DNA of 17,470 nt. Origin: a virus. Made by a program: the position numbers and the translations under genes. Under the pieces are notes generated by a model that searched no databases, was not told the DNA's origin, and worked only from the letters and a program-made list of their open reading frames with translations. Of the stretch, positions 258 to 17,367 are shown piece after piece; position 1 is the stretch's first letter, and each line of letters opens with the position of its first letter. The DNA lies in the UHGV virus genome UHGV-0068970. One strand, written 5' to 3'.

Positions 258-390
258 TTTTTGGGACTCCTGGCTGATTAAGTATGTCGATAAGGCGTTT
301 CCATCCGTCACGTAATTTACGGGTGATTCGTTCAAGTAAAGATTCGGAAGGGCAGCCAGCAACAGGCCACCCTGCAATGGCATATTGCAT
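226..390 (-). CDS. cIII: cIII (FtsH protease inhibitor), 54 aa
   Basis: Reverse complement from 390 translates [54 protein letters not shown], recognisably lambda cIII. It is in a different frame from the 114..383 track ORF, so it is not listed there. Confidence 0.9.
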   Translation of the reverse strand: MQYAIAGWPVAGCPSESLLERITRKLRDGWKRLIDILNQPGVPKNGSNTYGYPD

Positions 391-462
391 GGTGTGCTCC
401 TTATTTATACATAACGAAAAACGCCTCGAGTGAAGCGTTATTGGTATGCGGTAACGCCGCGC

Positions 463-3005: not shown

Positions 3006-3191
3006 ATGTACAAGAAAGATGTTATCGACCACTTCGGAACCCAGCGTGCGGTAGCTAAAGCGTTAGGCATTAGCGATGCAGCAGTCTCTCAGTGGAAGGA
3101 AGTCATCCCAGAGAAAGACGCCTATCGACTGGAAGTCGTTACAGCTGGCGCCCTGAAGTATCAAGAAAGTGCTTATCGCAAAGCGGCATAA
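3006..3191 (+). CDS. cro: Cro repressor, P22-type, 61 aa
   Basis: Track ORF MYKKDVIDHFGTQRAVAKALGISDAAVSQWKEVIPEKDAYRLEVVTAGALKYQESAYRKAA matches P22 Cro in my recollection. GGAG RBS at 2994-2997. Confidence 0.9.
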   Translation: MYKKDVIDHFGTQRAVAKALGISDAAVSQWKEVIPEKDAYRLEVVTAGALKYQESAYRKAA

Positions 3192-3197
3192 GCAAAT

Positions 3198-3240
3198 TGC
3201 TCTTTAACAGTCATGGTCCTTATTCCCGCCGAAATGCGGG
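3198..3240 (+). promoter_or_regulatory. nutR site (boxA + boxB hairpin)
   Basis: TGCTCTTTAACA (3198-3209) then CCCGC-CGAAAT-GCGGG (3225-3240): same boxA core and identical boxB hairpin as nutL. Confidence 0.6.
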
Positions 3241-3299
3241 AATACAACGCGCATCAGTTGGTGCGTATAACTTCTTATTTGTTAAGGAAATACTTACAT

Positions 3300-3578
3300 A
3301 TGCAACTTACAAGTACTCGCAAGAAAGCGAATGCAATCACAAGCAACATCCTGAATCGAATTGCTGTACGTGGTCAGCGAAAGGTTGCTGATGCATTAGG
3401 GATTAATGAATCGCAAATTTCGCGATGGAAAGACAGCTTTATCCCAAAGATGGCCATGCTTCTGGCTGTGCTGGAGTGGGGTGTTGAAGACGAGGAATTA
3501 GCAAAGCTAGCAAAGAAAGTAGCCATGGTGCTGACAAAAGAAAAGCCTCAAGACTGCTGCAACAGTTTTGAGGCCTGA
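3300..3578 (+). CDS. cII: cII-type lysogeny establishment activator (P22 c1-like), 92 aa
   Basis: From the internal ATG at 3300 (AAGGA RBS upstream): MQLTSTRKKANAITSNILNRIAVRGQRKVADALGINESQISRWKDSFIPKMAMLLAVLEWGVEDEELAKLAKKVA..., sharing the SQISRWK...IPK..MLLAVLEWGV core with lambda CII. The track ORF's 29 N-terminal residues cover nutR and are probably untranslated. Confidence 0.8.
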   Translation: MQLTSTRKKANAITSNILNRIAVRGQRKVADALGINESQISRWKDSFIPKMAMLLAVLEWGVEDEELAKLAKKVAMVLTKEKPQDCCNSFEA

Positions 3579-3605
3579 TGTAGAAAGACTGGATCAATCC
3601 ACAGG
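3536..3605 (-). ncRNA. oop: oop-like antisense RNA (pO promoter in O start region, terminator overlapping cII 3' end)
   Basis: Minus strand: -35 TTGAGT, 17-nt spacer, -10 CATAAT (plus 3610-3615). About 70 nt downstream, hairpin GCCTCAA...TTGAGGC followed by UUUUCUUUU (plus-strand A-run 3536-3545). Same architecture as lambda oop. Confidence 0.45.
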
Positions 3606-3612
3606 AGTCATT

Positions 3613-4512
3613 ATGACAAATACAGCAAAAATACTCAACTTCGGCAGAGGTAACTTTACCGGACAGGAGCGTAATGTGGCAGATCTCGATGATGGTTACG
3701 CCAGACTATCAAATATGCTGCTTGAGGCTTATTCAGGCGCAGATCTGACCAAGCGACAGTTTAAAGTGCTGCTTGCCATTCTGCGTAAAACCTATGGGTG
3801 GAATAAACCAATGGACAGAATCACCGATTCTCAACTTAGCGAGATTACAAAGTTACCTGTCAAACGGTGCAATGAAGCCAAGTTAGAACTCGTCAGAATG
3901 AATATTATCAAGCAGCAAGGCGGCATGTTTGGACCAAATAAAAACATCTCAGAATGGTGTATCCCTCAAAACGAGGGAAAATCCCCTAAAACGAGGGATA
4001 AAACATCCCTCAAATTGGGGGATTGCTATCCCTCAAAACAGGGGGACACAAAAGACACTATTACAAAAGAAAAAAGAAAAGATTATTCGTCCGAGAATTC
4101 TGGCGAATCCTCTGACCAGCCAGAAAACGATCTTTCTGTGGTTAAACCGGATGCTGCAATTCAGAGCGGCAGCAAGTGGGGGACAGCAGAAGACCTGACC
4201 GCCGCAGAGTGGATGTTTGACATGGTGAAGACCATCGCGCCATCAGCCAGAAAACCGAATTTTGCAGGGTGGGCTAACGATATCCGTCTGATGCGTGAAC
4301 GTGACGGCCGTAACCACCGCGACATGTGCGTGCTGTTCCGCTGGGCATGCCAGGACAACTTCTGGTCCGGTAACGTGCTAAGTCCGGCCAAACTCCGCGA
4401 CAAGTGGACCCAACTCGAAATCAACCGTAACAAGCAACAGGCTGGCGTGACAGCCGGAAAATCAAAACTCGACCTGACAAACACTGACTGGATTTACGGG
4501 GTGGATTTATGA
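3613..4512 (+). CDS. O: Replication initiator O (lambda-type), 299 aa
   Basis: From ATG 3613 (AGGAG RBS 3603-3607): MTNTAKILNFGRGNFTGQERNVADLDDGYARLSNMLLEAYSG..., recognisably lambda O. The track ORF starts upstream at 3568 (stop-to-stop extension). Confidence 0.9.
   Translation: MTNTAKILNFGRGNFTGQERNVADLDDGYARLSNMLLEAYSGADLTKRQFKVLLAILRKTYGWNKPMDRITDSQLSEITKLPVKRCNEAKLELVRMNIIKQQGGMFGPNKNISEWCIPQNEGKSPKTRDKTSLKLGDCYPSKQGDTKDTITKEKRKDYSSENSGESSDQPENDLSVVKPDAAIQSGSKWGTAEDLTAAEWMFDMVKTIAPSARKPNFAGWANDIRLMRERDGRNHRDMCVLFRWACQDNFWSGNVLSPAKLRDKWTQLEINRNKQQAGVTAGKSKLDLTNTDWIYGVDL
3961..4090. repeat. Phage origin of replication: four O-binding iterons plus adjacent A/T-rich unwinding region, inside the O gene
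   Basis: Iterons ATCCCTCAAAACGAGGGA (3961-3978), ATCCCCTAAAACGAGGGAT (3981-3999), CATCCCTCAAATTGGGGGAT (4003-4022), ATCCCTCAAAACAGGGGGAC (4028-4047), then an A-rich tract to about 4090. Confidence 0.8.
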
Positions 4513-5210
4513 AAAACATCGCCGCACAGATGATTAACTTTGACCGTGAGCAGATGCGTCGGATCGCTAACAACATGCCGGAACAGTACGACGAAAAGCC
4601 GCAGGTACAGCAGGTAGCGCAGATCATCAATGGTGTGTTCAGCCAGTTACTGGCAACTTTCCCGGCGAGCCTGGCTAACCGGGACCAGAACGAACTGAAC
4701 GAAATCCGCCGCCAGTGGGTTCTGGCTTTCCGGGAAAACGGGATCACCACAATGGAACAGGTTAACGCAGGAATGCGCGTAGCCCGTCGGCAGAATCGAC
4801 CATTCCTGCCATCACCCGGGCAGTTTGTCGCCTGGTGCCGGGAAGAAGCATCTGTTAACGCCGGGCTGCCAAACGTCAGCGAGCTGGTTGATATGGTTTA
4901 CGAGTATTGCCGGAAGCGTGGCCTGTATCCGGATGCAGAGTCTTATCCGTGGAAATCGAACGCGCATTACTGGTTGGTTACCAACTTGTACCAGAACATG
5001 CGGGCCAATGCGCTGACTGACGCGGAATTACGGCGCAAGGCTGCCGATGAACTGACCTGTATGACAGCGCGAATTAACCGTGGTGAGACGATACCTGAAC
5101 CAGTAAAACAACTTCCTGTTATGGGCGGTAGACCTCTAAATCGTGCACAGGCTCTGGCGAAGATCGCAGAAATTAAAGCTAAGTTCGGACTGAAAGGAGC
5201 AAGTGTATGA
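4509..5210 (+). CDS. P: Replication protein P (DnaB helicase loader), 233 aa
   Basis: Track ORF MKNIAAQMINFDREQMRRIANNMPEQYDEKPQVQQVAQIINGVFSQLL..., recognisably lambda P. ATGA overlap with the O stop. Confidence 0.9.
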   Translation: MKNIAAQMINFDREQMRRIANNMPEQYDEKPQVQQVAQIINGVFSQLLATFPASLANRDQNELNEIRRQWVLAFRENGITTMEQVNAGMRVARRQNRPFLPSPGQFVAWCREEASVNAGLPNVSELVDMVYEYCRKRGLYPDAESYPWKSNAHYWLVTNLYQNMRANALTDAELRRKAADELTCMTARINRGETIPEPVKQLPVMGGRPLNRAQALAKIAEIKAKFGLKGASV

Positions 5211-5509
5211 CGGGCAAAGAGGCAATTATTCATTACCTGGGGACGCATAAGAGCTTCTGTGCACAGGACGTTGCCGCGGTAACAGGCGCAACCGTAACCA
5301 GCATAAATCAGGCTGCGGCTAAAATGGCGCGGGCAGGAATCCTGGTCGTTGATGGTAAGGTCTGGCGAACGGTGTATTACCGGTTCGCTACCAGAGAAGA
5401 ACGGGAAGGAAAGGTGAGCACGAATCTGATTTTTAAGGAGTGTCGCCAGAGTGCCGCGATGAAACGGGTATTGAGGGTATATAAAAGAACATCAATGGGT
5501 ACACAATGA
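5207..5509 (+). CDS. ren: Ren (Rex exclusion resistance) protein, 100 aa
   Basis: Track ORF MTGKEAIIHYLGTHKSFCAQDVAAVTGATVTSINQAAAKMARAGILVVDGKVWRTVYYRFATREEREGK..., lambda Ren-like. ATGA overlap with the P stop. Confidence 0.85.
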   Translation: MTGKEAIIHYLGTHKSFCAQDVAAVTGATVTSINQAAAKMARAGILVVDGKVWRTVYYRFATREEREGKVSTNLIFKECRQSAAMKRVLRVYKRTSMGTQ

Positions 5510-5576
5510 TGAAACAGGTGAGTTGAGTTCAAACTGTAGTACAATTCTCTCCAGTTTGAACAGGAAAGAATATGTT

Positions 5577-5909
5577 ATGAACCCTTATATTTATCTTGGT
5601 GGTGCAATACTTGCAGAGGTCATTGGTACAACCTTAATGAAGTTTTCAGAAGGTTTTACACGGTTATGGCCATCTGTTGGTACAATTATTTGTTATTGTG
5701 CATCATTCTGGTTATTAGCTCAGACGCTGGCTTATATTCCTACAGGGATTGCTTATGCTATCTGGTCAGGAGTCGGTATTGTCCTGATTAGCTTACTATC
5801 ATGGGGGTTTTTCGGCCAACGGCTGGACCTGCCAGCCGTTATAGGCATGATGTTGATTTGTGCTGGTGTGTTGGTTATTAATTTATTGTCACGAAGCACA
5901 CCACATTAA
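5577..5909 (+). CDS. emrE: EmrE small multidrug resistance (SMR) efflux transporter, 110 aa
   Basis: From the internal ATG at 5577: MNPYIYLGGAILAEVIGTTLMKFSEGFTRLWPSVGTIICYCASFWLLAQTLAYIPTGIAYAIWSGVGIVLISLLSWGFFGQRLDLPA..., recognisably E. coli EmrE (four TM helices, conserved Glu at position 14). emrE is a known DLP12 cargo gene. Confidence 0.9.
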   Translation: MNPYIYLGGAILAEVIGTTLMKFSEGFTRLWPSVGTIICYCASFWLLAQTLAYIPTGIAYAIWSGVGIVLISLLSWGFFGQRLDLPAVIGMMLICAGVLVINLLSRSTPH

Positions 5910-6153
5910 AAATAATTTCTTTTAAAAGACTGAAATATGGCGGTTCATATCTTTACATGGGCCGCTTTTGTTAATGTTTTTAGTTTTTGTGTATTCTTTT
6001 GTGCCTTCAAGATTATTGCGTAAGCAAATTGCAATACGATTATTGTTGTATATTCAAAAGAATGTGATCGTAATTGTCTTTTTAAATAAAAATTAAACAA
6101 AAATTATATCTCACCACTAAGGTTTATAAAAGCATACGTTAGCAGGTGTCACC

Positions 6154-7680
6154 ATGAAAAAAGCCATAGCATATATGCGATTTTCATCACCAGGTCAGAT
6201 GTCTGGCGACTCATTAAACCGACAGAGAAGACTTATTGCTGAATGGTTAAAGGTAAATAGTGATTATTATCTTGATACCATAACATATGAAGATTTAGGA
6301 TTAAGTGCATTCAAAGGAAAGCATGCACAATCAGGAGCTTTTTCGGAATTTTTAGATGCTATAGAGCATGGTTATATATTGCCAGGAACTACATTGCTAG
6401 TTGAAAGTCTGGACAGACTTTCAAGAGAAAAAGTCGGTGAAGCGATTGAGCGTCTGAAATTGATTTTGAATCACGGTATTGATGTTATAACTCTTTGCGA
6501 TAATACAGTCTATAATATTGACTCTTTGAATGATCCATATTCATTAATAAAAGCCATACTTATAGCACAAAGGGCAAATGAAGAAAGCGAGATAAAGTCA
6601 AGTCGGGTTAAATTATCATGGAAGAAAAAACGGCAGGATGCACTGGAGTCAGGCACGATTATGACGGCGTCTTGTCCGAGATGGCTCTCATTGGATGACA
6701 AAAGAACAGCTTTTATTCCAGACCCCGACAGGGTGAAAACGATTGAGCTAATTTTTAAACTCAGGATGGAAAGGCGATCATTGAATGCAATAGCCAAGTA
6801 TTTAAATGATCATGCTGTAAAAAATTTCTCAGGAAAAGAAAGTGCATGGGGGCCTTCTGTAATTGAAAAATTATTAGCGAATAAAGCTCTGATAGGTATA
6901 TGCGTACCTTCATATCGTGCAAGAGGTAAAGGAATAAGTGAAATCGCTGGCTATTATCCCAGAGTCATATCAGATGATTTGTTTTACGCTGTGCAGGAAA
7001 TTCGGTTGGCACCTTTTGGTATTAGCAATAGTAGCAAAAATCCTATGTTGATAAATCTACTTCGAACAGTTATGAAGTGCGAGGCTTGTGGTAATACCAT
7101 GATTGTTCAGGCGGTATCTGGAAGTTTGCATGGCTATTATGTTTGTCCGATGAGAAGACTGCATCGATGTGGCAGGCCATCAATAAAGAGAAATTTGGTT
7201 GATTATAATATCATTAATGAGTTGCTTTTTAATTGTAGTAAAATCCAACCAGTTGAAAACAAGAAAGATGCTAATGAAACTTTAGAGTTAAAAATTATTG
7301 AGCTCCATATGAAAATTAATAATTTAATTGCTGCATTATCTGTTGCGCCTGAAGTTACCGCTATAGCAGAAAAAATCAGAGTATTAGATAAGGAATTACG
7401 AAGGGCTTCTGTATCATTAAAAACTTTGAAGAGTAAAGCGGTGAGCTCACTTGGTGATTTTCATGCTATTGACTTAACCAGTAAAAATGGGCGAGAGCTA
7501 TGTCGTACACTTGCCTATAAAACATTCGAAAAAATCATAATCAATACAGATAATAAAACCTGTGATATCTATTTTATGAATGGCATTGTTTTTAAACACT
7601 ATCCTTTAATGAAAACAATATCCGCCCAGCAGGCGATAAGTACTCTCAAATATATGGTTGATGGTGAGGTTTATTTTTGA
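6154..7680 (+). CDS. ybcK: Large serine recombinase (resolvase catalytic domain + recombinase domain + zinc ribbon), YbcK-like, 508 aa
   Basis: N-terminal AIAYMRFSSPGQ...SLNRQ resolvase-type motif, central recombinase region, Cys cluster CEACGNTM...YYVCPMRRLHRCG, coiled-coil tail. Matches my recollection of DLP12 YbcK. AT-rich relative to the flanking phage genes. Confidence 0.85.
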   Translation: MKKAIAYMRFSSPGQMSGDSLNRQRRLIAEWLKVNSDYYLDTITYEDLGLSAFKGKHAQSGAFSEFLDAIEHGYILPGTTLLVESLDRLSREKVGEAIERLKLILNHGIDVITLCDNTVYNIDSLNDPYSLIKAILIAQRANEESEIKSSRVKLSWKKKRQDALESGTIMTASCPRWLSLDDKRTAFIPDPDRVKTIELIFKLRMERRSLNAIAKYLNDHAVKNFSGKESAWGPSVIEKLLANKALIGICVPSYRARGKGISEIAGYYPRVISDDLFYAVQEIRLAPFGISNSSKNPMLINLLRTVMKCEACGNTMIVQAVSGSLHGYYVCPMRRLHRCGRPSIKRNLVDYNIINELLFNCSKIQPVENKKDANETLELKIIELHMKINNLIAALSVAPEVTAIAEKIRVLDKELRRASVSLKTLKSKAVSSLGDFHAIDLTSKNGRELCRTLAYKTFEKIIINTDNKTCDIYFMNGIVFKHYPLMKTISAQQAISTLKYMVDGEVYF

Positions 7681-7791
7681 GTAATAATCACTTTTTCAAC
7701 CGTGCTATAGTAAGAAAGTTAGGTAAGTACAATAAAATTATCTATCCTGAACGAAGCGTCCTGAGCTATGATTTTACTATAGGGACTGCCA

Positions 7792-8115
7792 ATGGATGCT
7801 GGCGTTCTCGTTCTAGCAGTTCAACAATCCCCAATCACAAAACAATTCACTGATAACGAACTTTGCACACTCGCCTGGTTATGGCGAGCAGGGAATGTGA
7901 TGTTAATTGCCTACCAGAACGTTACTCATCTTCTTCAGGATGCGGAGCATGGTGAAGCTGGTCACTTCACTTCCATCGAGCAAGAATATCCCCAGATACT
8001 CAACAGAGCGCGAGCAATCCTCGTCCGAGAAACGGCACATGTAAAACTTCAGCCGTGGCAGGATGATAAGTGGAGTCGAGTATTGCCGCATTTACCTCAG
8101 AATCTGTTTCAATAA
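7792..8115 (+). CDS. Hypothetical protein, 107 aa (orphan ORF; possibly a gene remnant)
   Basis: Only long ORF between ybcK and the HNH-domain gene. GC-richer than both neighbours. Weak RBS. No motif recognised. Followed by a 10-bp perfect hairpin (8143-8168). Confidence 0.4.
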   Translation: MDAGVLVLAVQQSPITKQFTDNELCTLAWLWRAGNVMLIAYQNVTHLLQDAEHGEAGHFTSIEQEYPQILNRARAILVRETAHVKLQPWQDDKWSRVLPHLPQNLFQ

Positions 8116-8289
8116 AGGCGCTAGTTAGTAAGGCTTCCGTCATTCTGCGATGACGGAAGTGCGGGCTGCGTACGGGAGAGCAATTGCATGAATAATATAA
8201 ATATTCCGCTCACTCCATATAGCGATTTCTGATACAAACTTATCTATTGTGGTAAAATTATAGAAACAAACTTATAGCGTACTAACCAT

Positions 8290-9072
8290 ATGGACAATAT
8301 TAATAAACACGGGCTCTCAAGAAGAATACCTGAGACAATAAAACGTCAGATAAGGCAAAGGTGCGGCTTTGGCTGTGTAATTTGTGGATTTGGATTTTAT
8401 GATTATGAGCATTTTAAACCTGACTTCGTTGATGCCAAAGTACATGATCCGAATGGAATGACACTTCTTTGCTCCCAATGCAATCAAAAAAGAGCTCGTG
8501 GTAGACTTTCAGCACAGACAGTGGAAATAGCTGACAGAAATCCCAAGTGCTTACAGGCTGGTTTTGCAAATGAAATGTTTGATTTTCATAATGAGCCTAT
8601 AACAGTAAAATTTGCAGGAGTGACGTTTCATAACTGTCAAAATTTGATTGTAGTCAATGAACAACCCATTCTTTCTGTGAAACCTTCACCCATACCACAT
8701 GGACCGATGCTTTTATCAGGAATTTTCTGTAATTCTATTGGTAAGGAGACTTTACTGATAGATGAAAATGAATGGAAAGCTAAATCAGACAATTGGGATG
8801 TGGAGTGTACCGGCCCGCGTATAACAATACGACGTGGGCCAGGAGAGTTTGCCCTCGTTCTAAAAATGGAACCTCCAACAGGATTGATTGTTGAGCGTCT
8901 TGATATGTTGTATGAAGGGGTCAGGATGAAAGGAGATAAAGATCTGCTGGAAGTTTCGATTAATGGAGGTCCCTTGCACAGATGGCAATCATGCTCAATG
9001 TCAAATTGCCATACAGGGCTTGCGATTCAGGGCGGTATTAGAGCTGCTAATGATCCTTTGTATTGCGCCTAA
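8290..9072 (+). CDS. HNH-nuclease-domain protein with uncharacterised ~190-aa C-terminal domain, 260 aa
   Basis: N-terminus RCGFGCVICG...YDYEHFKPDF...HDPNGMTLLCSQCNQKRARG fits the HNH/beta-beta-alpha-Me signature; compare the canonical HNH at 17017-17367. AT-rich ORF with a TGn extended -10 (TGGTAAAAT, about 8250-8262). C-terminal domain not recognised. Confidence 0.7.
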   Translation: MDNINKHGLSRRIPETIKRQIRQRCGFGCVICGFGFYDYEHFKPDFVDAKVHDPNGMTLLCSQCNQKRARGRLSAQTVEIADRNPKCLQAGFANEMFDFHNEPITVKFAGVTFHNCQNLIVVNEQPILSVKPSPIPHGPMLLSGIFCNSIGKETLLIDENEWKAKSDNWDVECTGPRITIRRGPGEFALVLKMEPPTGLIVERLDMLYEGVRMKGDKDLLEVSINGGPLHRWQSCSMSNCHTGLAIQGGIRAANDPLYCA

Positions 9073-10754: not shown

Positions 10755-11132
10755 ATGCGTGATATTCAGATGGTTCTTGAGCGTTGGGGAGCGTGGGCGG
10801 CTAATAATCATGAAGATGTGACCTGGTCGTCCATTGCCGCCGGTTTTAAGGGATTAATTCCTTCAAAAGTAAAATCTCGCCCACAATGTTGTGACGATGA
10901 CGCGATGATCATTTGCGGGTGCATGGCCCGTCTGAAAAAGAACAACAGCGATTTGCATGATTTATTGGTGGACTATTATGTCGGCGGCATGACTTTTATG
11001 GCGCTTGCACGTAAGCATGGGCGATCTGATTGTTGGGTTGGCAGGATGCTTCAGAAAGCTGAGGGCGTAGTGGAGGGTATGCTGATGGTGTTGGATCTCC
11101 GATTGGAGATGGATGCTGATTGTTCGAAATAA
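10755..11132 (+). CDS. quuD: Late-gene antiterminator Q (QuuD-type), about 125 aa
   Basis: [33 protein letters not shown]...[18 protein letters not shown]... recognised as DLP12 QuuD. ATG at 10755 preceded by GGAG. The track ORF begins at an upstream TTG (10740). Confidence 0.85.
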
Positions 11133-11230
11133 TTAAAGGAAAAGTTGCTGTCTGATTGTCATTAGTCTAACATTTTAAATGTTGGAATCGCAACGTAGTT
11201 ATTATCATATAACAGCTTGTTTCCTGATTT

Positions 11231-11259
11231 AGCCAGCCTCCCCAAAGGCTGGTTTTTTT
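11231..11259 (+). terminator. tR'-like rho-independent terminator downstream of Q (target of Q antitermination)
   Basis: Hairpin CCAGCC-tccccaaa-GGCTGG followed by TTTTTTT (11253-11259), about 100 nt after the quuD stop. Confidence 0.6.
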
Positions 11260-11287
11260 CTAATAAGTATTATTTCGGGTAGGGATT

Positions 11288-11812
11288 TTATTGTTTAACC
11301 CATAATAATTCATTGACATTGAATCCCAACTTTTGAGCGGTTCGCACATAGTCTGCTTTTACTTTATCTGGAATAGTTGGGGTCCTTGCCAGAATCCATA
11401 GGTATTCTCTGTTCGGACCACTGACAAGAGCATACTTATACTCATCATCCAGTTTGATTACATTATAGCCACCATAGAAGGGGCCAAAAAACGAAACCTT
11501 CAATGCTGCAGTTTTAGTATCTCCAGTAAAGTATGCTTTACCTTCGCTCTCGCTCCATTTATTTTTCGTTGGATCGTATCCACGGTTAAGTACACGAATC
11601 CCTCCGTCGTTCCGTTTTCCATAAGTAGCGCTGACCTGTTCCAGACCACGTTCGAACCGGTTCTCGAGGCGAGCTATTTCATACCATTTTCCGAGGTAGC
11701 GGTTGGCGTCAAAATTTGTAATCGGCTGCACACCTTTAGGTGGTGTCGGGGCCTTACATGCTATAAGAGTGAAAGAGAGTGCAATGCCAGTCAACACAGG
11801 CCATAACTTCAT
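11288..11812 (-). CDS. blc: Blc-like outer-membrane lipocalin lipoprotein, 174 aa
   Basis: Signal peptide with lipobox (LIAC). NFDANRYLGKWYEIARLENRFERGLEQVSATY...KVSFFGPFYGGYNVIKLD...YLWILARTP closely parallels E. coli Blc. Encoded antisense to the late transcript. Confidence 0.8.
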   Translation of the reverse strand: MKLWPVLTGIALSFTLIACKAPTPPKGVQPITNFDANRYLGKWYEIARLENRFERGLEQVSATYGKRNDGGIRVLNRGYDPTKNKWSESEGKAYFTGDTKTAALKVSFFGPFYGGYNVIKLDDEYKYALVSGPNREYLWILARTPTIPDKVKADYVRTAQKLGFNVNELLWVKQ

Positions 11813-12004
11813 AATAAATCCTGTACTTTTGATAGTTGAGAGTAAGTATGAAAGATAGATGATTACGACCGATCACTTAAAGAACTTTCATACTATATTA
11901 GGAATAGTCCATAACAGAAAAATTGTCAGTGATGACGCCAGAAAGGCAATTTATTCCGTGCACTACACAGTTTATGTGTTAATGAATTAGTCAAGGGGGA
12001 GAAT

Positions 12005-12964
12005 ATGATAAAAAAACCTGTGATTGGAATCAGCGGTTGTTTGGCCGGTTCTGCTGTTCGTTTTGATGGTGGTCACAAAAGAGCTGACTTTTTAATGGAC
12101 AAATTAGTGGAATGGGTAACATTCAGACCAGTATGTCCGGAAATGGCTATAGGGCTGCCAGTTCCGCGTCCTGCTCTACGTCTTGTGCGCTCGATGCAAG
12201 GAAATATACGGATGTGTTTCAGCCACGACCAGAATGAGGATGTGACAGAGAGAATGACAGAGTTTAGTCGTTCTTATATGGACAAATTAAAGGATGTATC
12301 GGGGTTTGTGGTTTGTGCTAAATCTCCCAGCTGTGGCATGGAGCGCGTGCGTGTCTATGATGAAAATGGTAATCGAGGTCGTAAAGATGGAGTGGGACTA
12401 TTTACGAGCACTTTGATGGAAAAGTTTTCCTGGCTACCGGTTGAAGAGGATGGGCGATTACATGATCCAGTGCTTCGTGAGAATTTTGTTGAAAGAGTTT
12501 TTGCTTTGCATGAGCTCAATCACCTTTACAAGGAGAAATTATCAAGAAGAGAGTTATTAGCTTTTCATAGTCGTTATAAGCTTCAGTTGTTGGCGCATAG
12601 TCAGGCAGGCTATAAAGATATGGGACCATTTGTGGCTGCAATACACGAGTGGGCGGACCTTGAATCATACTTTGAGGTGTATCGTGATAAGCTGATGGCG
12701 ATTCTCAGAAAACCTGCATCACGTAAAAATCACACGAATGTGCTGATGCATATACAGGGGTATTTTAGTAACTACTTAAGTACACGCCAGCGTAAAGAGT
12801 TGAGCGAGGTTATACTTAACTATCGTTCTGGCACATTACCTCTTCTTGCGCCGTTGACTCTGCTGAAGCATTATCTGGGTGAGTATCCTAATGATTACTT
12901 GCTTACACAGAATTACTTCGATCCCTATCCGGACGAACTGGCTCTAAGACTGATGGTAAATTAA
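12005..12964 (+). CDS. DUF523 (TudS-like putative [4Fe-4S] thiouracil desulfidase) / DUF1722 (YbgA-like) fusion protein, 319 aa
   Basis: N-terminal half carries the DUF523 pattern GISGCLAGSAVRFDG ... PVCPEMAIGLPVPRP ... CAKSPSCGM with three conserved Cys. C-terminal about 170 aa is consistent with a YbgA-like DUF1722 domain. AGGGGGA RBS. Domain assignment from memory, not a search. Confidence 0.7.
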   Translation: MIKKPVIGISGCLAGSAVRFDGGHKRADFLMDKLVEWVTFRPVCPEMAIGLPVPRPALRLVRSMQGNIRMCFSHDQNEDVTERMTEFSRSYMDKLKDVSGFVVCAKSPSCGMERVRVYDENGNRGRKDGVGLFTSTLMEKFSWLPVEEDGRLHDPVLRENFVERVFALHELNHLYKEKLSRRELLAFHSRYKLQLLAHSQAGYKDMGPFVAAIHEWADLESYFEVYRDKLMAILRKPASRKNHTNVLMHIQGYFSNYLSTRQRKELSEVILNYRSGTLPLLAPLTLLKHYLGEYPNDYLLTQNYFDPYPDELALRLMVN

Positions 12965-13315
12965 TTGTATGCGATATCATCCAAAAGGATGAGTTCCTGC
13001 ATGCAGGATATTTACAATCGTAAAAACTACACTATGATACCCAGAGTGTCAGTTTGTATAAAAACTCTGTTTACGCTGAAGAAACAATTGAGATGCAACT
13101 TAAAGTTGGTAAACATGCCAGTCAAAATATATAATATTATGATTCCACGCAGCTATATATAATATAACAGATTGGTTTAATAATTTGTCTTTGTGAGTTA
13201 AATACATAATTTTATACTTGTGATGCAATGAAATTTTCCTTATTGTTGAACTGGCGAATATTGATTTTCCACCTATACTTACCTGGTGTAACCCCAATGA
13301 TATCAGGTGGATAAT

Positions 13316-14047
13316 ATGCCATACATATGTTCTATCATTTTGGTGTTGAACTCGTTTGATGTCCGAATTGGTAAAGAAGATATTTTGTTTAAAAAAGGAA
13401 GTGCTGTTCTCATTGATTACAATTTAAAAGATTTTTTTTCATCAAATATAGATCATGTAATGATCGTAGATGTTGAAGAGAAAACAGTTAATGATTTCTT
13501 TAAAAGCAACACACTCTCACCTTTTTCTGTAAGAAGGTTTTATCCGGCATACTTGATGGTGGAATGTGAAGATTTTTCATTGTTAAAGAACTTGATTGCA
13601 TGCTTGAATTGTGATGGCAGAACTGTGGATTTTGTTAGAAATCAAATATCACTTGCATGTCTTGCTATCTTATCTTCAGAGAAAATAGTGCAAAGTTTTT
13701 TATTTGGATGTCTTAATAGTTTAGGAAGTAAAGTTAAGGCTATTATTCACACGGATATATCTGCAGCATGGAGACTTTGTGATATATCTTCAAGACTGTA
13801 TCTGAGTGAAAGTCTGTTAAAAAGAAAATTAAAGCACGAAGGCTTATCATTTAGTAAGTTAATTCTTGAAGAGCGAATGGTGATGGCGGAAAGGTTATTA
13901 AGCTACAATTTATATTCTGTTGGAAAAGTTGCTGAGATATGCGGTTATGAAAACACGTCATATTTTGTAAGTGTTTTCAGAAGGTATTTTGGTGTTCCTC
14001 CCCATCAATATTCATCAAGATTTTTTTTAGAAAAAGACATGATGTAA
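13316..14047 (+). CDS. AraC/XylS-family transcriptional regulator, about 243 aa
   Basis: C-terminal AraC-type HTH signature (...ERMVMAERLLSYNLYSVGKVAEICGYENTSYFVSVFRRYFGVPPHQY). Very AT-rich gene and upstream region. ATG 13316 has an AGGTGG RBS; the track's 13307 start is an upstream GTG. Confidence 0.8.
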   Translation: MPYICSIILVLNSFDVRIGKEDILFKKGSAVLIDYNLKDFFSSNIDHVMIVDVEEKTVNDFFKSNTLSPFSVRRFYPAYLMVECEDFSLLKNLIACLNCDGRTVDFVRNQISLACLAILSSEKIVQSFLFGCLNSLGSKVKAIIHTDISAAWRLCDISSRLYLSESLLKRKLKHEGLSFSKLILEERMVMAERLLSYNLYSVGKVAEICGYENTSYFVSVFRRYFGVPPHQYSSRFFLEKDMM

Positions 14048-14234
14048 CGTGATGCGTTTTAATGATTTTGTAATTTTCGTATTTGATAATTGTATGATGC
14101 TTTCAGCTACGCCAGAATAATCGCGGCGTTTTTCTTTTTGAATAGATGTTCAAGCCTTACGCTAATGTAACTTCTATACCTTTCCTCTTCGTTCCGAACC
14201 GTGTACACCATCCGTTATTTGCGGAGGTGAGGCT

Positions 14235-14450
14235 ATGAAATCCATGGATAAGTTAACAACGGGTGTCGCCTATGGCACCTCAGCAGGTAGTGCCGGTTAC
14301 TGGTTTTTACAGCTGCTCGATAAAGTCACGCCCTCACAGTGGGCAGCAATAGGTGTGCTGGGTAGCCTGGTATTTGGCCTGCTGACGTACCTGACAAACC
14401 TTTATTTCAAGATTAAAGAAGATAAGCGCAAGGCTGCGAGAGGTGAATAA
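14235..14450 (+). CDS. essD: Class II holin (phage 21 S-type pinholin), dual-start motif, 71 aa
   Basis: [71 protein letters not shown], recognisably S21/EssD. Two TM segments. Met1 and Met4 dual start. Confidence 0.9.
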
Positions 14451-15437: not shown

Positions 15438-15586
15438 TGTCCGCAGTAAACGCGCATTCTCGTGCGCATATCAACCAAGAGCTTTTCGGGATATGAGACA
15501 GAGACAGGACGGTGGCTTACATCGTGCCGCTCTTGGGCTGTCCATGTCTGCGAGAACTGGCTCATATCACCAAAAAGGTAAATACG

Positions 15587-16315
15587 ATGTCCAATATCAT
15601 CCCGATTGATTTCGAAGGCCATCCCATGCGTTTTTCTGACGATGGCTGGTTTGACGCGACTGCGGCAGCTGACAAGTTCAACAAGGAGCCGGCTCAGTGG
15701 CTTAGGCTTCCTGAGACTGTCCGTTACATCGAGGCGTTAAAGAGTAGATATGGGAATATCACATATGTAAAAACCAGCCGCGCTCGCAAAGATCGTGGTG
15801 GCGGAACATGGCTTCACCCAAAACTGGCGGTCAGATTTGCTCGATGGCTTTCTGTAGATTTTGAGATCTGGTGTGATGAGCAAATTGACGCAATCATTCA
15901 GGGTTCCGTTCATCATATCGACGATGAAAGAATAAAGGCTATTTTCCTTCTGGATAAATCTCAGCCATGGGAAAAGAGGTTTAGCGATCCGTTTTATTCT
16001 GCGATGTTCAAAATGTCAGGGCTGCCCCGTCATCGACCAGGTCGTCGCCCCGCACTATTTGGGATGATCAGTGCCAAGTGGGTATATGGCCCGGTATTAC
16101 CACCAGAAGTATATGCAGAGGTTAAAAGACGGCTGGCTACGGGAGACAAAATCCATCAGCACCTTAAACCTGACGCGCTGACATTGGTTGAGCGACAGAT
16201 CATTGCCGTTACCAGCATTGCCAATGGGTGCTCTGATTATCGTGATTTCGAAGCGCGTTGCATGTCGGCATTCCAGGTGAAAGGGCAGATGAAATTGCTC
16301 TATGCGGCGGCCTGA
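15587..16315 (+). CDS. KilA-N/Bro-N-like DNA-binding domain protein (antirepressor-like), about 242 aa
   Basis: From ATG 15587: MSNIIPIDFEGHPMRFSDDGWFDATAAADKFNKEPAQWLRLPETVRYIEAL... resembles KilA-N/Bro-N phage domains. C-terminal half unassigned. Start uncertain; the track ORF begins at 15512. Confidence 0.6.
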   Translation: MSNIIPIDFEGHPMRFSDDGWFDATAAADKFNKEPAQWLRLPETVRYIEALKSRYGNITYVKTSRARKDRGGGTWLHPKLAVRFARWLSVDFEIWCDEQIDAIIQGSVHHIDDERIKAIFLLDKSQPWEKRFSDPFYSAMFKMSGLPRHRPGRRPALFGMISAKWVYGPVLPPEVYAEVKRRLATGDKIHQHLKPDALTLVERQIIAVTSIANGCSDYRDFEARCMSAFQVKGQMKLLYAAA

Positions 16316-17016: not shown

Positions 17017-17367
17017 ATGCCACCTCGAACACCAAAAGCTTGCCGTGTTCGCGGCTGCCGTTCCACGACAACAGACCCATCAGGTTACTGTGAGTCGCAC
17101 AAAGGCGAAGGCTGGAAATCCTACAAATCAGGACAATCAAGGCATCAGCGCGGTTATGGTTCGAAGTGGGATGTTATCCGCGCACGTGTCCTGAAACGTG
17201 ACAAAGGCCTGTGTCAGTTATGTCTGCGTGCCGGTGTGGTGCGTGAAGCTAAAACCGTTGACCACATCATCCCTAAAGCGCATGGCGGCACCGATGCCGA
17301 CAGTAATCTGCAGAGTCTGTGCTGGCCCTGCCATAAGGCGAAGACGGCCCGTGAACGGTTAAAGTGA
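17017..17367 (+). CDS. HNH endonuclease (packaging-associated type), 116 aa
   Basis: Canonical HNH signature CQLC...VDHIIPKAHGG...NLQSLCWPCHKAKT. GGAG RBS. Sits just upstream of the expected terminase small-subunit gene. Confidence 0.85.
   Translation: MPPRTPKACRVRGCRSTTTDPSGYCESHKGEGWKSYKSGQSRHQRGYGSKWDVIRARVLKRDKGLCQLCLRAGVVREAKTVDHIIPKAHGGTDADSNLQSLCWPCHKAKTARERLK

Follow-up and report, generated by a model that had tools for sequence, protein, structure and literature searches.

Which functions does a lambdoid phage carry in the short interval between its late antiterminator gene and its lysis genes, and how did they come to stand there together? UHGV-0068970, a 17,470-nucleotide stretch of viral DNA referred to throughout as the window, is by gene content and domain searches a segment of a DLP12-like lambdoid phage. 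Positions 11133-14234, between the antiterminator gene Q and the holin gene S, hold three genes: blc (a predicted outer-membrane lipocalin), rudS (a predicted tRNA desulfidase) and araC (an AraC-family regulator). An earlier note on this DNA, made from the letters alone, had placed three genes here between Q, its terminator tR' and the holin, and both the coordinates and the gene calls hold. It is probable that the interval is a composite moron (lysogenic-conversion) cassette, which occupies a replaceable Q-S interval in phages with a Q21/QuuD-type antiterminator and consists of two modules of separate origin. The term moron is used in the sense of Hendrix and Juhala. Gene identities, catalytic residues, boundaries, the chromosomal origin of blc-rudS, conservation and purifying selection were all established in the present analysis.

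The cargo genes and the two genes that bound them are:

10755-11132, plus strand: late antiterminator Q (Q21/QuuD type; PF06530, 173 bits)
11288-11812, minus strand: blc, predicted Blc-type outer-membrane lipocalin lipoprotein, 174 residues, antisense to the late transcript
12005-12964, plus strand: rudS, RudS, a TudS desulfidase fused to DUF1722, 319 residues (PF04463 and PF08349)
13316-14047, plus strand: araC, AraC/XylS-family regulator, 243-246 residues (alternative GTG start at 13307)
14235-14450, plus strand: S21-type holin, the first lysis gene and the downstream boundary of the cargo (PF04971, 121 bits)

The cargo interval and its boundaries

Homology between the window and the K-12 prophage DLP12 breaks off within the 3' end of Q, at 11114, and restarts 11 bp ahead of the holin ATG, at 14224. 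In DLP12 the corresponding Q-S interval is occupied by nmpC, for which the cassette substitutes exactly, from the 3' end of Q to the holin ribosome-binding site. These breaks indicate that the interval is exchanged as one unit, together with its PR'-tR' segment. The window Q is 87.5% identical to K-12 QuuD and 98% identical to Q of phage 1H12, and matches the solved Q21 structure (6P18, E = 1.9e-8); the holin is 100% identical to K-12 EssD. In prophage Sp4 of O157 Sakai, the same interval holds PsrA. The description of the region as the classic Q-S cargo site is borne out by these comparisons.

Known Q-S cargo of lambdoid phages includes stx in Stx phages and nmpC in DLP12. The window shares with these the interval itself, bounded by Q/PR'/tR' and the holin, and, as for other Q-S cargo, co-oriented genes are expected on the late transcript. 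As in DLP12, one cargo gene lies on the opposite strand (nmpC there, blc here). Unlike stx or nmpC, the window cargo encodes no toxin or porin, and unlike in DLP12 the PR'-tR' segment is a different one that belongs to the exchangeable module. The interval has two hallmarks of a moron, being extra DNA between genes that is differently filled in a related phage (nmpC in DLP12), and deviating in base composition, with a G+C content (GC) of 0.30-0.36 for araC and 0.41-0.45 for blc and rudS, compared with 0.48-0.54 in the nin and lysis genes on either side.

RudS, a tRNA 4-thiouridine desulfidase

The rudS product contains PF04463 (residues 7-149, 137 bits), which is named '2-thiouracil desulfurase' in current Pfam and was formerly DUF523, and PF08349 (residues 192-309, 140 bits). 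As judged by sequence, this DUF523/DUF1722 fusion is RudS, the tRNA 4-thiouridine (s4U8) desulfidase or 's4U eraser', described in 2024 by Jamontas et al. (PMC11417400). The Cys ligands of the [4Fe-4S] cluster are present as C12, C44 and C110, in the contexts ISGC, RPVC and SPSC, as are the catalytic residues E46, R55, S107 and S109, at offsets matching E51, R60, S111 and S113 of RudS_KT.

A phage enzyme, RudS_vir (H3V29_gp66 of phage 1H12; Cys ligands C12, C44 and C110), was synthesised and assayed in the same study; its overexpression in E. coli lowered tRNA s4U, less than with other RudS enzymes, and overexpressed RudS lessens the growth delay triggered by ultraviolet A (UVA) light (PMC11417400). 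The window protein is 93% identical in amino-acid sequence to assayed RudS_vir, and shares with it the two-domain architecture, Cys ligands at identical positions and the catalytic Glu/Arg/Ser-x-Ser residues. The genomic order Q, blc (minus strand), rudS, araC, holin is also that of phage 1H12. The window allele differs in being approximately 89% identical in DNA and in residing in a different phage mosaic, with a DLP12-like nin region. The activity of RudS_vir, like the occurrence of Blc in a lysogen proteome discussed below, is taken here from the literature. The RudS_vir study took the gene in isolation, and its neighbours, its prevalence in E. coli and its function for the phage were not discussed (PMC11417400).

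Of the two halves K-12 has only DUF1722, as YbgA (49% identity over this part), and according to a 2026 review RudS is missing from E. coli (PMC13602947). This statement fails for about one complete genome in five, as approximately 21% of complete E. coli genomes carry an apparently intact phage-borne rudS.

The lipocalin and the regulator

The lipocalin matches Pfam Lipocalin_2 (PF08212, 149.7 bits) and the NCBIfam model 'outer membrane lipoprotein Blc' (NF007786, 316.1 bits, cutoff 267). Its signal peptide, read from the sequence as MKLWPVLTGIALSFTLIAC19-K, ends in the lipobox LIAC19, with Lys rather than Asp at position +2; with this lipobox and sorting residue, the protein is predicted to be an outer-membrane lipoprotein. 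It is 60% identical over its full length to K-12 Blc and 97% identical to the phage 1H12 copy. The lipobox, the Lipocalin_2 fold and the NCBIfam Blc subfamily are thus common to E. coli Blc (b4149) and the window protein, which at this 60% identity nevertheless represents a paralogue-like lineage that is phage-borne and tied to rudS rather than to ampC/gdx. In infant-gut lambda phages, blc was found as a moron in more than 50% (PMC6969025). An identical protein, WP_000780581.1, has been quantified in a clinical E. coli proteome, at two- to threefold higher levels with meropenem, and its detection indicates that Blc is expressed from a resident prophage.

The regulator contains HTH_18 (54.9 bits) and HTH_AraC (44.1 bits) domains and is encoded by an AT-rich gene (GC 0.32, compared with 0.48-0.52 in the flanks). 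Over approximately 233-243 residues it is 54% identical to ECs_0287, 39% to PsrA, 34% to GadW, and 32% to AppY and YdeO. Its DNA-binding domain is 72% identical to that of the PatE-like ECs_0287, whereas the N-terminal domain is only 24-40% identical to those of group members (40%, 26% and 24%, with 40% for ECs_0287). From its sequence the protein is a member of the prophage-borne PatE/PsrA/PsrB/AppY/GadW/YdeO group, AraC proteins with a small N-terminal domain. Scores against the NCBIfam equivalog models for YdeO (127, cutoff 348) and GadX (85, cutoff 500) lie below those needed for orthology to these named regulators. With PatE (Z0321, CP-933H/Sp1), PsrA/PsrB (Sp4, OI-50/57) and AppY (DLP12) it shares a length of approximately 240-250 residues, AT-richness, a prophage cargo location and the conserved N-terminal start M-x-x-x-C-S-[VI]-I, and with PsrA also the location of its gene in the Q-S interval. 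Unlike these proteins, it is orthologous to no characterised member, and its targets are only predicted. Sakai ECs_0287, the AraC-type gene of Sp1/CP-933H, appears from its position to be PatE (Z0321). PatE, PsrB and AppY activate the gadE/hdeA acid-resistance genes, and by analogy the window regulator probably activates targets of the gadE/hdeA type and counters H-NS silencing.

In an AlphaFold model of the regulator (pLDDT 75), the whole chain matches CsvR/Rns/ToxT, and the DNA-binding domain superposes on GadX (3MKL; Foldseek TM 0.86-0.90, profile match E = 2.7e-32). Fatty-acid sensing was considered and rejected, as the invariant residues K20 and R74 misalign with the pocket residues H20 and R75 of Rns, with a profile offset of approximately 29 residues. 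For the related psrA (Sakai ECs_1087; 28678-29391 of the stretch examined), the 588-nucleotide RefSeq coding sequence appears to begin too far downstream; starting from an in-frame ATG 126 nucleotides upstream, the product has 237 residues and matches all family members from its first residue onwards (MVVVCSVI...).

The earlier note had not recognised this combination of genes as a described system. As a real cluster the combination stands, but its parts belong to known families and no evidence was found that they form one joint system. The fusion protein is the characterised tRNA s4U desulfidase, with a 93%-identical phage 1H12 orthologue already assayed (PMC11417400), blc had already been reported as an infant-gut lambda-phage moron (PMC6969025), and the regulator falls into the known prophage group of PatE, PsrA, PsrB and AppY.

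Origin of the two modules

Scans of one genome per species yielded 62 chromosomal rudS loci, in Enterobacterales only, at 66-76% identity. In 41 of these a lipocalin gene lies divergently upstream within approximately 1.5 kb. Except at two loci (69% and 72%), the rudS-linked lipocalins are 77-82% identical to phage Blc, compared with 60% for canonical E. coli Blc. The arrangement in 36 loci is a leftward blc followed by rightward genes for an MlrA-like MerR regulator, a transthyretin-like protein and RudS; in two Citrobacter species the leftward blc and rightward rudS are directly adjacent, as in the phage. The C. sedlakii pair, with a spacer of 188 bp (phage: 192 bp), stands among core genes (BCCT transporter, rluF-like, lysC). 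Given these divergent chromosomal pairs, blc-rudS is a block captured as a pair from an enterobacterial chromosome. The loci of Enterobacter, Leclercia, Lelliottia, Phytobacter and C. sedlakii share the divergent lipocalin-rudS pair with the phage; they differ from it in usually containing the MlrA-like MerR regulator and the transthyretin-like gene, in lacking AraC and in intergenic DNA that is not alignable. An AraC gene is absent from all 62 chromosomal rudS loci. In a search for the donor, genome and metagenome scans returned nothing between the phage alleles, at 93% identity, and the closest chromosomal copies, at 76%. Phage RudS stands by itself on a long branch and has a GC of 0.43, compared with 0.47-0.62 in the chromosomal copies.

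The araC gene has a different history. Its GC of 0.32 contrasts with 0.43-0.44 for blc and rudS, and between the window and the Qin-type allele the synonymous divergence (dS) is 0.31 for araC and 0.04-0.05 for blc and rudS, a jump that places a recombination breakpoint in the rudS-araC spacer. The insertion sequence (IS) IS1 occasionally deletes or interrupts araC while blc-rudS stays intact. Homologues of the regulator stand at phage cargo sites unaccompanied by blc-rudS: one of 64% identity directly 3' of a lambda-type Q, PsrA in the Q-S interval of Sp4, and PatE-like genes with tail-fibre genes on one side and int on the other in mEp332, ev099 and Sp1. The araC gene is a separate module that was added independently and reassorts by recombination.

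Several further observations were made on these loci. IS1 and IS3 repeatedly insert into the cassette or delete parts of it; IS1 replaces araC (locus positions 5960-6890) and IS3 cuts rudS short in strain E4, which suggests that the AT-rich spacer and araC are an IS target. The blc, merR, transthyretin-like, rudS arrangement is conserved in Enterobacter, Leclercia and related genera (for example 3021-5960 of one locus stretch). Near-UV is reported in the literature to lower tRNA s4U in Enterobacter cloacae, and the MlrA-like MerR protein could be a light- or stress-responsive regulator of the chromosomal rudS locus. Citrobacter braakii ATCC 51113 has two rudS loci in one genome. The second rudS type, also present in C. 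portucalensis and C. murliniae, has a GC of 0.47-0.51 and forms its own clade, suggesting another horizontally moving lineage, with no phage genes nearby.

Distribution and selection

Matches to the 3.1-kb interval were found in 1156 of 5426 complete E. coli genomes at 80-100% identity, with coverage of at least 80% in 992, counts which include clonal inheritance. When queried separately in the same genomes, blc-rudS was found in 1151 and araC in 1033; the trio is linked in 992 of 1045 E. coli genomes with the blc-rudS pair. Twelve deposited phage genomes also have the cassette, IdasGreatGrand at 99.3% identity and 1H12 with ten related 'Lambda_' isolates at approximately 89.5%. Recurrence on this scale, in genomes and phages alike, indicates that the block is not a chance assembly. 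Among 80 IMG/VR contigs with RudS at 98% identity or more, 71 have the full order of rightward Q, leftward blc, and rightward rudS, araC and S, and the same Q-blc-rudS-araC-S order is found in gut metagenome contigs. The cassette resides in DLP12-like, Qin-like, lambda-like and decayed attB-lambda remnant prophages, and in every case the same QuuD/Q21-type Q precedes it and an S21-type holin follows. The comparison of Q-S intervals therefore finds the cluster kept among phages, and does not agree with the proposal that it could be a host fragment with no conservation among them. No complete genome has a match covering at least 80% of the whole window, which is a novel mosaic of common modules.

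The ratio of nonsynonymous to synonymous divergence (dN/dS) is 0.06-0.19 for blc, 0.11-0.24 for rudS and 0.21-0.26 for araC. All three genes are under purifying selection, and this, although many of the host prophages are defective, argues for a benefit to the lysogen.

Two contigs assigned to a 'Candidatus Nanosynbacter sp.' metagenome-assembled genome (JARKOR010000151.1 and JARKOR010000135.1) carry Q, blc, rudS, araC and holin, with 94-100% identity at the amino-acid level, and almost certainly represent E. coli phage DNA placed in the wrong bin.

Candidate regulatory elements and a model of expression

The non-coding elements of the interval are:

11145-11205, plus strand: candidate PR' region, read from the sequence, with -35 TTGCTG (11145-11150) and -10 TAACAT (11168-11173)
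11231-11259, plus strand: tR'-like intrinsic terminator, a 9-bp G+C-rich stem followed by seven T, from a terminator scan
11813-12004, no strand assigned: divergent blc/rudS intergenic region, 192 bp, presumed to contain the promoters of both genes
12966-13005, plus strand: stable hairpin directly 3' of the rudS stop codon (fold -20.4 kcal/mol, z = -4.21)
13011-13038, plus strand: candidate araC promoter, TTTACA-16 nt-TATGAT, with 10 of 12 consensus positions, joint best of a 4-kb scan
14109-14138, plus strand: weak hairpin followed by UUUUUCUUUU, upstream of the holin (fold -8.1 kcal/mol, z = -0.54)

The tR'-like terminator lies directly 3' of Q and is invariant in four aligned cassette alleles. 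Its hairpin folds at -14.9 kcal/mol (z = -4.29), and none of 200 shuffled sequences folds as well. A structured RNA in the interval was rejected, the only Rfam match, to a 'toxic sRNA' on this hairpin (28.6 bits), being below the threshold of 50 and taken as resemblance to a terminator. The candidate PR' stretch is kept among cassette alleles and is not alignable with DLP12, whose region is non-homologous; a -10-like TATTAT at 11200-11205 could act as a sigma-dependent pause element. The blc/rudS spacer, conserved to over 90% between phage alleles, does not align with that of C. sedlakii (188 bp) and gave only weak promoter-like matches in the promoter scan. The hairpin at 12966-13005 has no U-tract and is possibly a transcript-end or stabiliser element. 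TTTACA and TATGAT of the candidate araC promoter, approximately 280 nucleotides upstream of araC, are invariant in three diverged alleles of the spacer, which around them is 79% conserved, with indels. Equally invariant in these alleles is the 17-nucleotide block TTTCCACCTATACTTAC at 13268-13284 (plus strand), approximately 35 nucleotides upstream of the araC start, which may have a part in the regulation or translation of araC. The hairpin at 14109-14138 folds no better than shuffled sequences and is only a weakly indicated, possible terminator of araC. No LexA box was found in the cargo promoter regions. SOS control was rejected on this ground, the sole LexA near-match, at 12018-12033 (one mismatch), falling inside rudS.

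The two plus-strand genes had been placed downstream of tR' in the earlier note; rudS and araC are indeed co-oriented with the late operon and lie 3' of the tR'-like terminator, a layout from which Q-dependent read-through of both genes may soundly be inferred. The promoters, the read-through by Q, the targets of AraC and the physiological benefit are likewise the conjectural parts of the following model. In the lysogen, transcription from PR' would halt at tR', and each cargo gene would presumably use its own promoter. After induction, Q-modified RNA polymerase from PR' would read through tR' and the whole 3 kb, so that rudS and araC would be co-transcribed with the lysis genes and blc would be transcribed antisense. 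The first module is the divergent blc-rudS pair taken from an enterobacterial chromosome. By analogy with the host protein, Blc would be exported as an outer-membrane lipoprotein, bind lysophospholipids or fatty acids, and aid the envelope under stress. RudS, with its [4Fe-4S] cluster, would turn photosensitive tRNA s4U8 back to U, an activity missing in K-12-type E. coli, and should blunt near-UV tRNA cross-linking and growth delay. The second module is the AT-rich, probably H-NS-silenced, AraC-type activator related to PatE, PsrB and AppY, whose PatE-like DNA-binding domain would most likely direct it to the acid-resistance regulon of gadE/hdeA.

Alternative explanations

Several of the data weigh against the composite moron as set out above. 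RudS_vir had lower activity than other RudS enzymes despite good expression, and tRNA may not be the best substrate of the phage enzyme. The genome counts do not equal independent acquisitions. The PR' hexamers match the consensus weakly and the promoter scan did not list the candidate, while promoter-like matches in the region as a whole are not enriched (13 found against 10.9 expected from shuffled sequences). The targets of the regulator are extrapolated from a 54%-identical relative that is itself called PatE by position. The Enterobacter loci have a MerR-type regulator between blc and rudS, so that the two genes may share their regulation instead of being independent, and the tight linkage of araC to blc-rudS (992 of 1045 genomes) is also expected of a functional three-gene unit. 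Such a unit could be one integrated stress module in which AraC replaced the chromosomal MerR regulator and controls blc and rudS in response to a light, envelope or acid signal. The trio's co-occurrence in those genomes and in 71 of 80 viral contigs fits this idea, as does the regulator that chromosomal blc and rudS usually flank (the 36 loci with merR and the transthyretin-like gene) and that the phage lacks. When the window and 1H12 alleles are compared, moreover, dS is 0.14-0.36 for Q, blc, rudS and araC and 0.91 for S, as for one travelling block. We nonetheless regard integration as unlikely, since araC is found in no chromosomal blc-rudS locus, has a very different GC, recombines independently (dS 0.31 against 0.04-0.05) and is removed or broken alone by IS1. 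Relatives of the regulator are found on their own in phage cargo sites and control genes of the host, and genes packed into 3 kb with an essential phage gene on either side can remain linked without any tie of function.

A role for RudS mainly in the lytic cycle would make it an auxiliary enzyme expressed late under Q after UV/SOS, which erases host tRNA s4U and either keeps translation running, by averting near-UV cross-linking and the stringent response, or remodels tRNA stability, with blc and araC as passengers. The orientation of rudS with the late operon 3' of tR', the lessened UVA growth delay on RudS overexpression (PMC11417400) and the retention of the gene in functional, plaque-forming phages agree with such a role. 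Its intactness under purifying selection in decayed prophages (the attB-lambda remnant of AR_0085, Qin-like) speaks instead for an advantage to the host, expression this late leaves the enzyme only minutes to act before lysis, and the activity of RudS_vir is modest; as the main function it seems improbable, but a lytic contribution is compatible with the composite moron and does not exclude it. That the genes are a neutral chromosomal fragment hitch-hiking with the Q/lysis module is very unlikely. While blc-rudS demonstrably derives from a chromosomal neighbourhood and IS elements strike the cassette repeatedly, dN/dS is 0.06-0.26 across alleles with synonymous divergence up to 0.2-0.57, the reading frames are intact in most of approximately 1000 genomes, the catalytic residues are kept and the Blc protein is made. 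Hardly any weight can be given to an anti-phage defence or superinfection-exclusion locus, which the position in a phage cargo hotspot and the surface-exposed or outer-membrane nature of Blc, like that of some exclusion lipoproteins, might bring to mind. None of the three proteins matches PADLOC-DB (E ≤ 0.01), all have clear homologues with non-defence functions, and in Enterobacter and Citrobacter the blc-rudS pair is chromosomal and of housekeeping type. Within the composite moron, a more specific and rather doubtful proposal is that blc-rudS is a conserved light or photo-oxidative-stress pair, captured to supply RudS-less E. coli with an s4U eraser and an envelope-lipid protector, and switched on by Q read-through at induction and by the PatE-like regulator in the lysogen. 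The MerR-type regulator between the two genes in Enterobacter and the near-UV effect on s4U in E. cloacae prompt this idea.

Other features of the window

The remaining genes follow a lambdoid order:

left part of the window: kil, cIII, a DUF2528 gene, sieB, N, cI, O, P, ren
middle: EmrE-like pump, YbcK-like serine recombinase, NinB, NinE, YbcO, RusA, Q
right of the cargo interval: S21-type holin, lysozyme, Rz, KilA-N protein, HNH endonuclease

A lambda cIII thermoregulator RNA (RF01804, 88.5 bits, gathering score 50) was found at 345-403 (minus strand), at the start of the cIII-like gene and adjoining kil. To the right, a KilA-N/P63C protein (15512-16315, plus strand) directly 3' of Rz has a marginal PADLOC match to PDC-S22 (E = 1e-4), and an HNH endonuclease (17017-17367, plus strand) lies near the window end. 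A second cargo stretch, at 5523-9072 (plus strand) in the nin region, is laid out as in DLP12:

5523-5909, plus strand: EmrE-like SMR pump
6154-7680, plus strand: YbcK-like large serine recombinase (GC 0.32-0.38)
7792-8115, plus strand: truncated Ant-like fragment
8290-9072, plus strand: 260-residue protein, phrog_6544, with no Pfam match

Significance

The cassette is a widespread composite moron of known families and as such a fairly ordinary cargo, not an undescribed kind of system. What is new here is the capture of blc-rudS as a pair, the recognition of the regulator as PatE-like and the prevalence figures, and the value of the finding lies in annotation and in pointers to simple experiments. 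The cassette is a clear case of a chromosomal pair captured into the Q-S site and then joined by a separate regulator module. Its regulator is an uncharacterised and very common member of the PatE/Psr/AppY group, which rewires acid resistance and, in enterohaemorrhagic E. coli, type III secretion. Differences between strains in tRNA s4U, in UVA growth delay and in s4U-based labelling could depend on prophage content. Should blc-rudS prove to be a photo-stress pair, a phage-delivered epitranscriptome and stress-tolerance module would alter the response to sunlight, UVA and acid in approximately one-fifth of E. coli strains.

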